This document shows positions 35,519 through 45,917 of a stretch of DNA of 64,000 nucleotides, piece after piece. Below the pieces are notes generated by a model. It searched no databases. It was given only the letters and a program-made list of their open reading frames with translations, and had not been told where the DNA came from. Source of the DNA: Candidatus Heimdallarchaeota archaeon (GTDB taxonomy: Archaea; Asgardarchaeota; Heimdallarchaeia; JABLTI01); NCBI GenBank assembly GCA_019058275.1, contig JAHLVW010000094.1, positions 64,001 to 128,000 of the forward strand, given 5' to 3'. The position numbers were made by a program, and so were the translations under genes. Within the stretch, counting starts at the first letter, position 1, and each line of letters opens with the position of its first letter.

Positions 35519-36546
35519 CTATGTTCCGAGCCTTCTTTTCATCGAACTGGTAGCATTCTTCAAGTCAGCATTGCTCATGAGAGGGAATTGATGCTTCTCA
35601 GCATCTTTGGTACATTCAAGATTTCTCTTTTTTGTTACCGATTCTGAGATTTCCTTTAAGATTATTCTGTCATTCACAATTTTTAATGTTCCCATATAAT
35701 ACTCATTTATTGCTAAGTTCACCATTATTAATAAATGGGTTCTTAATGAAGTTTTTTTATAACTCATTGCTTCTACTATGCGAGTTAACTTGTTGGAATG
35801 ATATATAAAGTTATACAATTTGTAAGCGGAATCACTTCTTTTTTCAATTTCTTGTGCTAACTCTTGGAAATCTATTTCCCCATTGATTATGTCATATCTT
35901 GATTTGGTCTGCAAAACTTTTTTCCTTGTAATGTAAGATGCAATGGAATCATAACGTTTGATCAATCTGATTAGTTGATTATCATTCAAATTGTTTCCGT
36001 GGTGGTTTAGACAAGCTTCTCGAACCTCTTCATCAAGTATCGTAACTTGTTTATAGATTTTACTTGGATGTTTCTCAGTATGAACAAAGTCATGAAGCAT
36101 AAGAGCAATCAGTAAACGCTGTAAAGATCTTGGATAATTAACTCCTAATCCTTTTCGAATCCTGAGTTTCCTTCTACGAGAAATTACCTTCTTTTTGTAT
36201 GCTTCAACTTTGTAATTTAACCATTTCACTTTTCCAAATCCTTGATTTCTCTTGCTTCCTAAGTTATCGAATGCCAGTATTCGTTCTATTTTTTCTTTAC
36301 CCCTCTTTTCGTTATGATCAACACAAGTTACTTTGACAAATCCGCGAAAAGCTTTCAAAACAATTGGCGCCTTTCGTTCTCCCCTTACTAGTTTTCCAAC
36401 ATAACTCCTGCGAGGTTTTTTCTTTGTTGCAAATCCCCTACTATCTTAAACCAACACCCATGTTTCTTAAAAAATGGAGAAGAAGATACAAGAGGAGTAA
36501 GTAGTTTCCCTTCCAAAGCGAAGAGTTTCTTTTCTTGTGTTACCAT
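35519..36546 (-). CDS. Cas5-like RAMP fused to an HD-type domain; split by a -1 frameshift near 36416-36421
   Basis: ATG 36546 overlaps the Cas7-like stop and reads MVTQEKKLFALEGKLLTPL (RAMP beta-1). The -1 frame continues to ORF 35519..36358, which has the G-loop LGSKRNQGFGKV, then LMLHDFVH...HH...YD (HD motifs). Confidence 0.7.
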
Positions 36547-37298
36547 GCTTCCTCCATTTGCTTCCAGAGGTTTCGTTCTTTTTCCTCCTCGATTATTTTA
36601 CCATTTTTTCCAATTGTTCTTGTCCGAAAAACTTCTTGGAGAACAATCTCCAGTAATTCAATTTTACCTGAGCCATTGTTTACACTTCCTCCGAGTCCAA
36701 GTTCAGGCATGAATAGTATCGCTTTGAGAAGAAATCCTAGTTCTTCTTGTTTTAGTTCCTCGTTGAAATCTATTATGAATGTGAATTCTCCAGAGAAATA
36801 TCGTTCCCCGAAATCTTGCATTGCTTGTTTTAAACCATGTGTTAAACTATTTCTTGTTTCAGTTGCTATGTGCACTTTTTGTGCATCCCCATTCTCCCCT
36901 TTTGAATATGTTGAAACAATAACTACTGGTTCGAATTTTACTCGAGAAAATCTTTTTATTGACCCCATAATACTATGCCAAATACATTCACTTTCAGGGA
37001 AACACGCACCATTTGGATGGAATCCTTCTGGGAGTAGTTTTTCCCCACTTTGTGTTTCTGTTTTATCTGAAGAGTGACAGATCTCTACTCCTTGTTGTTT
37101 TGCTATTGCCATCATGGAGTGATTAAGTAATCCTCTTATCCCTTTCACTAAGTATCTTTTCCCATCGTTTCCATTTTCTCCATTTGTTCCTAGGAGTAGT
37201 AAGTTGTTTACTTTTCCTCCGGAAAACGCTCCATTTCCTGTCTTAGTAATGGGTGTTCTTACTCTTACTTTTATTCGCTTAAATTTTCTCGAAACCAT
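36540..37298 (-). CDS. Cas7-group RAMP protein (Csm3/Cmr-like, Zn-binding)
   Basis: VRVRTPI, GIRGLLNH, C...C...C..HSIMGS, and a C-terminal G-rich loop LGLGGSVNNGSGKI. Confidence 0.8.
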   Translation of the reverse strand: MVSRKFKRIKVRVRTPITKTGNGAFSGGKVNNLLLLGTNGENGNDGKRYLVKGIRGLLNHSMMAIAKQQGVEICHSSDKTETQSGEKLLPEGFHPNGACFPESECIWHSIMGSIKRFSRVKFEPVVIVSTYSKGENGDAQKVHIATETRNSLTHGLKQAMQDFGERYFSGEFTFIIDFNEELKQEELGFLLKAILFMPELGLGGSVNNGSGKIELLEIVLQEVFRTRTIGKNGKIIEEEKERNLWKQMEEAW

Positions 37299-37427
37299 GT
37301 TTTTTCACCTTTTCTCTTAAATTCATTTTTCAAGATATGTTCATCGTGCATATCTTTAGTATATACTTTGTATATGGCAAACATTATTTATAAATATTCC
37401 TACCATATACATGTGGAGACAATTATT

Positions 37428-37592
37428 ATGACAGGACTAAAGTTTAGACGAAAGGTTATAATGAGCAACAGGAGTCTAATGGTCAACATACCACAAGAGA
37501 TAGCTGAAGCAATGGAAATAGAGAAAGGTGATGAGATAGAAATAACTTATCAAGAGAAGTCATTTACTTGCAAGAAGAAAATCAAAAATTGA
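37428..37592 (+). CDS. AbrB/MazE/SpoVT-family DNA-binding protein
   Basis: RKVIMSNRSLMVNIPQEIAEAMEIEKGDEI; start ATG 37428 after GGAG. Confidence 0.85.
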   Translation: MTGLKFRRKVIMSNRSLMVNIPQEIAEAMEIEKGDEIEITYQEKSFTCKKKIKN

Positions 37593-37682
37593 TTTAGTTC
37601 AATCATATGTGCTTATTCTGTTATAACTCATTACCGAGGAGTTAATATTGATCGTACAAACAAAGCTTCGAGGAATTACTCC

Positions 37683-44461: not shown

Positions 44462-44463
44462 AG

Positions 44464-45159
44464 GTGATGAAAGTGTCAATGAAAAAGAAAGTGAATCTCC
44501 AGAATAATCCAACAATAGCTCTAAATGGAGCTATAGCTACTATATTAACAGATAATGACTTTCGGATTCGAAAGAAGAAGAATAGGAAGCTATACAGATT
44601 AACAATAAAAGAAATCGTAGCTAAAGGATACATCCGGACACATGCGTTTGCTACTAATTGGCTAATGGGACTGTTTGAGTATGGTGAAATAACATCCCTT
44701 ACTTTTCATGAGATAATGGAAAAATTACCTTGGTCATGGGATAAAACAAGGGAGTATTTTGATTCATTGGAAGAAATTGGCATTGTTCAGTTTTCAAGAG
44801 ATTCGTTTGGTAGGAAAATTTGCATTCTTACTATTGACAAGGAGATTAGATCAAAACAAGTTGAAAACTTGGTTAACTTGTATAAAAAAAATGAAACTCA
44901 CTCACGAGTAACTTTTTCTGAAGCACGAAAGGAATACCTGAAATATTATGAAAAATTGAATGAGTGGTACTGTAAAAACGCAAATGTGGGAAAAATGTCA
45001 TCGAAGGTTACACAAACAATTAGTAACAAAGTTGACAAATTCATCTTCGATGTAACCAACATTATTAGTAAAGCTAGGGAAAAAGAGCTTAGAATTAATC
45101 TCTTGAAGTTTTTGAAGAGAAATCCTTTGTTGATACATTCATTAAAGAGGAATGGTTAG
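44464..45159 (+). CDS. Hypothetical protein with a winged-helix-like domain
   Basis: LTFHEIMEKLPWSWDKTREYFDSLEEIGIVQF. Confidence 0.55.
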   Translation: MMKVSMKKKVNLQNNPTIALNGAIATILTDNDFRIRKKKNRKLYRLTIKEIVAKGYIRTHAFATNWLMGLFEYGEITSLTFHEIMEKLPWSWDKTREYFDSLEEIGIVQFSRDSFGRKICILTIDKEIRSKQVENLVNLYKKNETHSRVTFSEARKEYLKYYEKLNEWYCKNANVGKMSSKVTQTISNKVDKFIFDVTNIISKAREKELRINLLKFLKRNPLLIHSLKRNG

Positions 45160-45161
45160 AT

Positions 45162-45917
45162 TTGGTAGTAATGGAATATGAATTAAATCTTAGTACGACT
45201 GAGTTTCTATATTTCCTGGATTGTCCACAGAAATTTAGACTTTACCGTATTCTCAATCCCTTACCATACAAGTCAAATTTCATGAATAGCAGTAGATCAG
45301 TAATTTCTTACAAAATGAGGGGATATAAGAGCAAAAAGGATAAGGGAATCAAATATCATCATTTCTTTGAGACTTTTCATAAGAAATATTCAAGGATTAT
45401 TACTAATACAACACCCCCAGAAGAAATACAAGAGGATAATGTGAAACTACTTTATTGGGTCATTCAACAAGAAAAATACTATGAAAAAAAAGAGGACTAT
45501 TACTGGTATCCATTTGAAAGAGAAGTTCGGCTAATGACGGAAAAACAAAGAGGAAAAATAGATTGTATTGAACTTTGTGAAGACAAAAATGGCTTACGAG
45601 TAATCGATTACAAATCAACTCCTGAACTTAATGATCATCTTACATTGCTGTTCTATGCAAGTTTGCTGAATGATTATCGCTTGGAGAATACAGATGAAGG
45701 GAAATTTGATTGTGAAGTGTTAGAGGTTGGTTGTTACTATTATGAAATGGGTGTAAAGAAAATCTATAATTTAACAGAAGTAGACAGATTAGCATTTGAA
45801 AGGATTCTTAAGAATACGCAAGAAAAAATATCGAATAATGAATTCTTCTTGAACAAAAGCTCATGTTGGAATTGTAACGTTAAGACAATCTGCAAGATTG
45901 AAATAGGGAGAAATTAA
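45162..45917 (+). CDS. Cas4-like PD-(D/E)xK nuclease with an Fe-S/Cys staple
   Basis: N-terminal CPQKF, G..YH, E, GKIDCIE, IDYKS, and C-terminal CWNC....IC. Confidence 0.8.
   Translation: MVVMEYELNLSTTEFLYFLDCPQKFRLYRILNPLPYKSNFMNSSRSVISYKMRGYKSKKDKGIKYHHFFETFHKKYSRIITNTTPPEEIQEDNVKLLYWVIQQEKYYEKKEDYYWYPFEREVRLMTEKQRGKIDCIELCEDKNGLRVIDYKSTPELNDHLTLLFYASLLNDYRLENTDEGKFDCEVLEVGCYYYEMGVKKIYNLTEVDRLAFERILKNTQEKISNNEFFLNKSSCWNCNVKTICKIEIGRN

Follow-up and report, generated by a model that had tools for sequence, protein, structure and literature searches.

What can a set of CRISPR-Cas-like genes be doing in a genome when no CRISPR array accompanies it? This question is raised by an island of ~10.5 kb (~35454-45940) found in a 64,000-nucleotide stretch of DNA from a Candidatus Heimdallarchaeota archaeon, known from a metagenome-assembled genome (MAG) of 4.1 Mb in 118 contigs with ~33% GC. 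The whole stretch (G000:C89:64001-128000; contig JAHLVW010000094.1) is referred to below as the window, and plain coordinates are positions in it. The island lies between snf7 and the o326/HerA gene pair, with the Snf7 and Cdc48 genes adjoining it, and homologues of its proteins were found only in Asgard MAGs, mostly labelled Heimdallarchaeota; both the neighbouring genes and these labels indicate a host of the Heimdall group. A preliminary description, made from the nucleotide letters alone, offered a choice between a Cas1-driven mobile element and a non-adaptive defence system. Our analysis leaves the two unsettled but leans to the former: we propose, with a probability of roughly 0.55, that the island is a Cas1-integrated mobile or once-mobile cassette and not an adaptive immune system. 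We favour this because of the decay of the island in multiple copies, the gene slot that holds either RAMP proteins or TnpB, the ends adjoining tRNA genes, the polymorphism of the site, and a Cas1 that lacks Cas2 and carries DNA-binding domains.

Three modules make up the island: (i) cas7-like and cas5-like-HD genes facing outward, the final ~195 nt of which form a conserved structured element reaching as far as the edge of the island; (ii) an AbrB-like gene followed by one combining LAGLIDADG motifs with a helix-turn-helix domain (LAGLIDADG-HTH); and (iii) an operon for a winged helix-turn-helix (wHTH) protein, a divergent Asgard Cas1 (aCas1), a 231-aa partner and a Cas4-like nuclease. Its features are as follows.

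35454-35650, minus strand: conserved structured element overlapping the cas5-HD 3' end, recognized by nucleotide conservation and covariation
35519-36546, minus strand: predicted Cas5-like RAMP with a Cas10-type HD nuclease domain, frameshifted, identified by fold matches
36540-37298, minus strand: Cas7-like RAMP, intact, 252 aa (Pfam RAMPs 1.8e-7, above cut-off)
37368-37592, plus strand: AbrB/MazE-type small DNA-binding protein (Pfam PF04014 1.8e-6)
37683-39257, plus strand: LAGLIDADG-HTH protein, 524 aa (Pfam LAGLIDADG_3 1.9e-8)
39258-41464, plus strand: copy-specific insertion of 2.2 kb, missing from the C16, C29 and G004:C6 copies
41466-41575, plus strand: conserved non-coding block before the Cas1 operon, containing an invariant 23-nt motif
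41716-42471, plus strand: wHTH protein, 250-253 aa if intact, with weak ArsR/Csa3-type HTH matches
42468-44461, plus strand: aCas1 with a wHTH, a Cys-rich region and a complete Cas1 fold, identified by fold match, frameshifted
44464-45159, plus strand: 231-aa operon partner, probably a wHTH protein, present in every copy
45162-45917, plus strand: Cas4-like PD-(D/E)XK nuclease with four Cys (Pfam PDDEXK_1 1e-13)

The map of open reading frames (ORFs) agrees with the gene positions given in the preliminary description. The coupling of the Cas7-like and Cas5-like-HD genes and their divergence from the AbrB-like gene, both claimed there, were confirmed: the cas7-like stop and the cas5-like-HD start (36546) overlap by 7 nt and the AbrB gene lies on the opposite strand. 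Its four component calls (Cas7-like, Cas5-HD, Cas1-like and Cas4-like) were all supported by structure and profile searches, and it had said that predicted structures without RAMP or Cas1 folds would speak against it; the models of Cas5-HD and aCas1 match such folds. The genes that it listed are present, but the LAGLIDADG-HTH gene and the 2.2-kb insertion were missing from the list. The operon does hold a wHTH gene, but what had been described as a 'wHTH' and an 'unknown' gene is a single gene (41716-42471) split by a TAA codon. The plus-strand operon (41716-45917) is tightly packed, neighbouring genes overlapping by 4 nt or standing 2 nt apart.

The protein on which the proposed mobility would depend is aCas1. 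It is a Cas1 homologue of ~665 aa with an N-terminal wHTH and a Cys-rich region (intact paralogues are 619-696 aa long), and its model has a predicted local distance difference test (pLDDT) of 87.3 and a predicted template-modelling score (pTM) of 0.82. In this model, a VIA search matched residues 339-607 to Archaeoglobus fulgidus Cas1 (Z 20.2, root-mean-square deviation (rmsd) 3.1, 244 aligned residues) and to the casposase 6opm (Z 18.6), and found a Z-alpha-like winged helix at residues 11-84; Foldseek returned 4n06 at 4.4e-7. The fold matches comprised Cas1 proteins and a casposase, and nothing else. Both features of a Cas1 integrase, the two-domain fold and the E, H and D/E metal-binding residues, are present in the family, which retains E418 (in an EG motif), H506, D516 (H+10) and E519 (H+13). 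A profile search of 1.84 billion representative proteins yielded only 55 relatives of aCas1, and distant relatives reach Pfam Cas_Cas1 at 2e-5, 1.2e-4 and 2.8e-3. Since the family sequence profile found no Cas1 among the PDB sequences, recognition of the homology required the fold search and these transitive Pfam matches.

The Cas4-like protein shows a cysteine pattern, C...CxxCx5C, as in the four-cysteine pattern of Cas4, and matched Cas4 models of PADLOC (5.9e-5) and TIGR00372 (1.6e-3, below cut-off). In a PHROGs scan no viral hallmark was found, and the sole match was that of the Cas4-like protein to an exonuclease family. It should be added that a HEPN domain was considered for the 231-aa protein and rejected, its R-x5-H motif being unconserved.

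The RAMP pair proved to be related to type III and type VII effector proteins. A Cas7-like profile built from eight paralogues matched type VII Cas7 (8yhd) at 3.4e-5 and Csm3 (4qts) at 0.012. The cas5-HD gene is a single ORF of 340-390 aa in the paralogues and keeps an unbroken frame in five of them; programmed frameshifting of the window gene was ruled out on the same ground, other copies being single ORFs. The AlphaFold model was made for an intact paralogue (L009:2760-3812, 51% identical; 43 homologues, pLDDT 82.6), and with it Foldseek returned exclusively CRISPR RAMPs, at weak E-values from 2.7e-3. In a search independent of Foldseek, residues 14-130, which match Csm4/Cmr/Csf RAMPs, aligned with the RAMP chain 9g9a_G of a Csm complex (Z 8.2, rmsd 3.3, 114 aligned), and residues 148-311 aligned with the HD domain of Cas10/Csm1 (6ifk_A residues 2-231; Z 8.2, rmsd 3.9, 147 aligned, 20% identity), both Z values being barely at the level where matches start to count. 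Because the list of matches holds only CRISPR proteins and because the HD, H, HH, D and H residues and a G-rich loop are invariant in the family, we conclude from the model that the protein is a Cas5-like RAMP fused to a predicted Cas10-type HD nuclease.

How is this set of genes distributed in the genome? The LAGLIDADG-HTH gene is its hub: in tblastn searches of the window's own genome we found ~22 copies of it, each at the centre of one of ~22 paralogous loci, together with seven RAMP pairs and several Cas1 operons. A wider aCas1 profile gave 24 matches, mostly near a LAGLIDADG gene and some in 1000-1400-aa fusions or split forms, and Cas5-HD gave 11 matches; many of these genes are broken. 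In the slot divergent from the LAGLIDADG gene, 10 loci have TnpB, four the RAMP pair and four a NERD protein, and in every case the 3' end of the occupant faces outward. The island itself has no TnpB; the sister copy on C16 has TnpB beside its LAGLIDADG gene. The protein carries two LAGLIDADG motifs and an XRE-type HTH, and its profile matched the PI-PfuI endonuclease (1dq3) at 2.9e-6. The GDG and DADG motifs are invariant in seven paralogues, as are D176 and D271; the catalytic acidic residues of a homing endonuclease are retained. Other copies likewise have the AbrB-like gene, here transcribed divergently from the RAMP pair, between that pair and the gene for the LAGLIDADG protein.

The eight-gene order of the window is repeated in other genomes of its genus, at G009:C26, G008:C67 and G008:C9, and in a second taxonomic family (G019, G031, G035) Cas5-HD lies ~5 kb from aCas1-like genes. 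Recurrence of the order and proximity in the second family indicate that the linkage of RAMP and Cas1 genes is conserved and not due to chance. Other LAGLIDADG loci of the same genome (C27, C50, C17, C11, C33, C52 and C84; L015-L019) have aCas1 in fusions of 1000-1400 aa or divided into a wHTH/Zn half and a Cas1 half, and are adjoined by genes for a DEAD-helicase-MZB protein and a calcineurin-like phosphoesterase.

The site between snf7 and o326 is polymorphic. In three genomes of the same genus (G002, G003 and G005) the island is absent, and the Cdc48-snf7 and o326-HerA pairs adjoin, with a gap of 92-120 bp between snf7 and o326. In another genome, G009, the island is complete, its aCas1 is unbroken, and it lies beside the snf7 orthologue; the island proteins are 31-69% identical to those of the window, whereas Snf7 is 90% identical. 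In G004 at minimum the cas5-HD end is present at the site, and in G006, G001 and G010 only a 3' stump of cas5-HD is left there. In the genomes compared, this pattern shows that the island is turned over by deletion, but it cannot serve to distinguish an old insertion from repeated ones.

Further ends were found elsewhere. In two cases the RAMP module finishes 2-3 nt away from the CCA end of a tRNA gene with an intron:

L041:1071-1179 (G000:C11): intron-containing tRNA gene, matched by Rfam
L045:19555-19700 (G010:C17): putative intron-containing tRNA gene, assigned from sequence only

ARAGORN found no tRNA in 11 loci, and the L041 gene was then detected by Rfam. Two RAMP-module ends, at L045:5428-5643 (G010) and L048:2387-2602 (G008), are followed after the end motif by the same flank, which points to orthology of the insertion sites in these two species.

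Set against its paralogues and orthologues, the window copy shows several defects. The cas5-HD gene is frameshifted at an A6 run (36416-36421), which divides it into ORFs 36388-36546 and 35519-36358; the wHTH gene is interrupted by TAA at 42121-42123 and is a continuous ORF in seven other copies; aCas1 is frameshifted at a C5 run (43932-43936) and carries Asn at H+10 (the D516 position), where Asp is near-invariant; and the TIGR04255 gene within the 2.2-kb insertion is split by TAG at 39743-39745. The two homopolymer frameshifts could be sequencing errors; the substitutions cannot be explained in this way. Recoding of stop codons was ruled out, the internal stops being a mix of TAA, TAG and TGA. 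Thus, read from its sequence, the window copy is a decaying island with two frameshifts, two in-frame stops and one D-to-N replacement. Being broken, it is a poor choice for experiments; test material is offered by the locus together with its relatives, among which there are intact full-set orthologues and occupied, empty and stump versions of one site.

The outward end of the RAMP module deserves separate attention. In the window the conserved element ends 1-3 nt before the snf7 ATG (35453). It covers ~150 nt at the end of cas5-HD and ~60 nt past the stop and is conserved at the nucleotide level in 16-19 copies, solo stumps included. Its parts are listed below.

35590-35605, minus strand: hairpin 1
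35582-35587 paired with 35511-35516, minus strand: helix 2, enclosing the stop codon
35470-35508, minus strand: terminal hairpin with an ACCAA/UUGGU stem and an A-rich loop
End motif of the window element: GGUAAUAAAA

The conservation does not appear to serve the protein, because the ORFs stop at differing positions and in differing frames within the block and because only in this block are third codon positions as conserved as first and second ones; the tail of Cas5-HD encoded here was modelled as disordered. Covariation was tested in 16 copies for three helices, the GAUGC hairpin, the long-range helix around the stop and a short inner one. Pairing was found in 88.1% of cells, against 80.4 +/- 1.1 in shuffled sets (0/500) and 40-48% with the partners slid, and nine pairs were changed on both sides, against 4.8 +/- 1.3 (0/500), counts that overstate independence since the copies are related. 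The G-U pairs favour the sense strand. The terminal hairpin begins 10-11 nt past the stop in 12 of 16 copies and is built from at least nine different complementary stems, with a mean stem of 7.06 nt, a value reached by 0/200 shuffles, against 5.67 in shuffled sequences. It is followed by a motif of ~10 nt with a consensus near UGGUGAUAAA, where similarity between copies ends; in the window and its G004 orthologue the sequence past this tag is the start of snf7, a sequence that island-less genomes also have. In the second family a comparable element was seen, whose covarying stem surrounds a shared AUGAAA-AGAAGG-UGGA core. The element offers a candidate RNA whose end is fixed where the element stops, and this could be used to test RNA guidance of such systems.

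It should be mentioned that an A-rich terminal-hairpin loop of ~35 nt was seen only in the copies directly upstream of snf7 (the window, G004, G006 and G010). Given that only 1-3 nt separate the end of the element from the snf7 ATG, the promoter of snf7 may lie within this loop.

Array-less Asgard RAMP systems (ARAMP) and Asgard Cas1 homologues were reportedly predicted in 2020-2023, and the original description of ARAMP is said to be that of Makarova et al. (2020, CRISPR J 3:156). At stake for both is whether they are defence systems or mobile elements, and whether they use RNA guides or none. ARAMP are summarized as CRISPR derivatives of Asgard archaea that have no array; their Cas5 and Cas7 are diverged, most of them include a distinct Cas1, and HNH or PD-(D/E)xK nucleases are associated with them. 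Together with the haloarchaeal HRAMP they are described as probable defence systems (PMC8730458, PMC12669027). In turn, aCas1 is regarded as the likely transposase of Asgard aCas1-TnpB loci, which have WhiA/meganuclease-like cargo and a hypervariable stretch beside a repeat-like motif downstream of tnpB (Altae-Tran et al., 2023, PMC10691335). The Asgard Cas1 and RAMP background invoked by the preliminary description corresponds to these published ARAMP and aCas1 systems (PMC8730458, PMC12669027, PMC10691335). Judged by the defining features as summarized in the reviews, the island is a further member of the ARAMP and divergent Cas1 kind, already predicted computationally: the host is an Asgard archaeon, the Cas7 and Cas5 proteins are diverged and closest to type III derivatives, there is no array, and a distinct Cas1 and a PD-(D/E)xK nuclease (1e-13) are present. 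No feature of the island contradicts this membership. The LAGLIDADG-HTH hub, the Cas5-HD fusion, the terminal element and the decay of the window copy are unmentioned in the summaries (PMC8730458, PMC12669027); added here are the presence and absence at one site, the decay of this copy, the hub gene and the covarying edge element.

The island also resembles other known systems in part. It shares the aCas1 superfamily with the aCas1-TnpB loci (Cas1H-Asgard-1/-2), and its sister copies carry TnpB divergent from the same LAGLIDADG gene; unlike those loci, the window copy has the Cas7/Cas5-HD pair at the TnpB position. The aCas1-TnpB motif GTTCACTCA gave seven matches in the window's own genome against ~26 expected, and neither GTTCACTCA nor GTTCACTGC was enriched there. 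With casposons the island has in common a Cas2-less integrase of the Cas1 family with a fused HTH and some ends adjoining tRNA genes; the casposon family B DNA polymerase, terminal inverted repeats and target-site duplication were not found in the island, PolB being missing from its ORFs in Pfam, NCBIfam, PADLOC and PHROGs scans. The Cas7 is nearest to type VII Cas7 and Csm3, and the Cas5-like fold and the HD domain of the Cas10 kind likewise recall type III and VII effectors. In contrast to them, the island is without the Cas10 Palm/cyclase, Cas14, Cas11, Cas6 and an array, and its HD domain is fused to the Cas5-like protein. HRAMP of haloarchaea, compared by description and not by sequence, is likewise array-less. 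Finally, TnpB with its omega/reRNA (IS200/IS605, IS607) offers a parallel in organization: an outward nuclease gene stands at the element end, and a structured RNA (here a candidate one) overlaps the 3' end of the gene and stops at the element boundary. The proteins are unrelated, those of the island being RAMPs with an HD domain and not RuvC proteins.

The preliminary description had stated that CRISPR repeats, cas2 and cas6 are missing from the window, and repeat, Rfam and Pfam scans agree: no CRISPR-like repeats were found in 33000-50000, the Rfam scan of the island region gave no match, and no cas2 or cas6 was found near the island, the Pfam matches for cas1, cas2 and cas6 being confined to C26 and C76. 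A class 1 CRISPR-Cas system (type III, IV or VII) is defined by a Cas10/Csf1 large subunit or Cas14, processing of CRISPR RNA and an array; of these the island has just an HD domain of the Cas10 kind, joined to Cas5, and the window holds neither cas6 nor an array. A genome-wide repeat scan found arrays on C26, C68 and C4 only, so that canonical CRISPR-Cas is present in this genome at the following places.

G000:C26:7839-16953: canonical CRISPR-Cas with cas6, cas1, cas2 and an array of 30-nt repeats
G000:C76:1150-2412: second cas1-cas2 pair
G000:C68:4006-4448 and C4:3-256: further arrays

Could the island genes be stray or spare parts of this ordinary system, using its arrays in trans? The genome does have arrays (C26, C68, C4) and canonical cas1 and cas2 (C26, C76). 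Yet a normal array and cas operon to which the island genes belong, named in the preliminary description as the finding that would overturn it, is not what we see: the C26 locus is complete, with its own cas1, cas2, cas6 and array, and the island genes are multi-copy, scattered, and linked to LAGLIDADG and TnpB genes, not to arrays; hence they do not look like its loose parts. The island proteins also fall far outside the canonical families, as the 55 aCas1 relatives illustrate, and the canonical repeats end in UAUUGAAAU, unlike the end motif of the ARAMP element. We therefore hold this explanation to be very improbable. No more credible is the idea of a minimal adaptive system in which the terminal hairpin would be the only repeat of a mini CRISPR array and aCas1 and Cas4 would write a single spacer-like guide next to it for Cas7/Cas5-HD. 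In its favour, Cas1 and Cas4 are CRISPR adaptation enzymes, and the layout is that of a hairpin, a conserved 10-nt tag and variable sequence. The hypervariable stretch by the repeat-like motif downstream of tnpB (PMC10691335) points the same way. However, after the tag come the start of snf7 in the window and G004, as in island-less genomes, and a tRNA gene in other copies; the sequence there is ordinary flanking DNA, which argues that no spacer was inserted.

The competing explanation with real weight is a stationary, array-less innate defence, in which Cas7/Cas5-HD would sense or cut invader nucleic acid, aCas1, the Cas4-like protein and the LAGLIDADG protein would be extra DNA nucleases or processors under AbrB/wHTH control, and the copies would be fast-evolving paralogues in defence islands. 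The literature regards HRAMP and ARAMP as probably defensive (PMC8730458, PMC12669027), several nuclease domains that look active (HD, PD-(D/E)XK) are conserved, the sister loci hold NERD, helicase-MZB and phosphoesterase genes, and the divergence of the G009 island proteins next to a well-conserved Snf7 suggests fast evolution. Against it stand the TnpB genes, a transposon hallmark, in the RAMP slot of 10 of 22 sister loci, the two module ends abutting tRNA genes, and a number of copies, ~20 per genome, that is unusual for a defence system. To our knowledge, a Cas1-fold integrase has no role in innate defence. We consider this explanation less likely than a mobile cassette, but a serious alternative. 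A mobile or once-mobile cassette is favoured by the slot, the tRNA-adjoining ends and the copies, and its working may be imagined as follows. Without Cas2, aCas1 would act as a casposase-like integrase, the Cas4-like nuclease would process DNA ends, and site recognition or regulation would fall to the LAGLIDADG-HTH and wHTH proteins. Cas7/Cas5-HD with the terminal RNA would be the counterpart of TnpB and the end-encoded RNA in the sister elements, its nuclease acting on nucleic acid that matches the element edge or flank. Several observations weigh against a mobile cassette. The ends of the island and of two sister islands (L040, L045) revealed neither terminal inverted repeats nor a target-site duplication or att repeat, in species diverged enough that short repeats could be missed. 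Homology between copies stops flush with the Cas4 stop codon, with no conserved right-end sequence beyond it. There is no sign of recent transposition, the copies being 30-85% identical. The island or its stump is kept at the same site in G000, G004, G009, G006, G001 and G010 with repeated decay, which the defence explanation also accommodates; long vertical residence followed by loss fits this retention as well as insertion does. Finally, the nuclease content (HD, PD-(D/E)XK and NERD, with helicases in sister loci) and the patchy turnover fit defence too.

If the RAMP pair turns out to be the counterpart of TnpB, this would bear on how the effector and adaptation modules of CRISPR first joined. 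By analogy with TnpB one may go further and suppose that Cas7/Cas5-HD is an RNA-guided nuclease serving the element, with a single guide read from the edge hairpin-plus-tag into host DNA, a proposal that we regard as speculative and rather improbable. Were it true, RAMP effectors and TnpB would be interchangeable edge-guard modules of Cas1/LAGLIDADG elements, and these elements would be a surviving link from Cas1 transposons to class 1 CRISPR effectors.

The remaining features concern the middle and the right flank of the island. The non-coding block 41466-41575 contains a 23-nt motif, TGTACAAGAGGGGTATTTCGAGG (41468-41490), which is identical in seven copies from five genomes where the proteins are 60-85% identical. 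Placed after the LAGLIDADG gene and before the Cas1 operon, it has the 2.2-kb insertion directly to its left, and its length would suit a recognition site of a LAGLIDADG or HTH protein. Covariation supporting an RNA fold was not found in the block, which is possibly a DNA-level site or an unstructured RNA. The insertion has the following gene content.

39446-39745 and 39782-40207, plus strand: two ORFs of a TIGR04255-family gene (NCBIfam TIGR04255 1.8e-10 and 6e-15)
40223-40636 and 40633-41301, plus strand: two overlapping ORFs of 137 and 222 aa, with no family matches

To the right of the island, on the minus strand (45974-49772), lie the genes for a 326-aa protein without assigned function (o326) and an 895-aa HerA/DUF87-type ATPase. 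They form a conserved pair, situated outside the island and found in all ten congeners searched.

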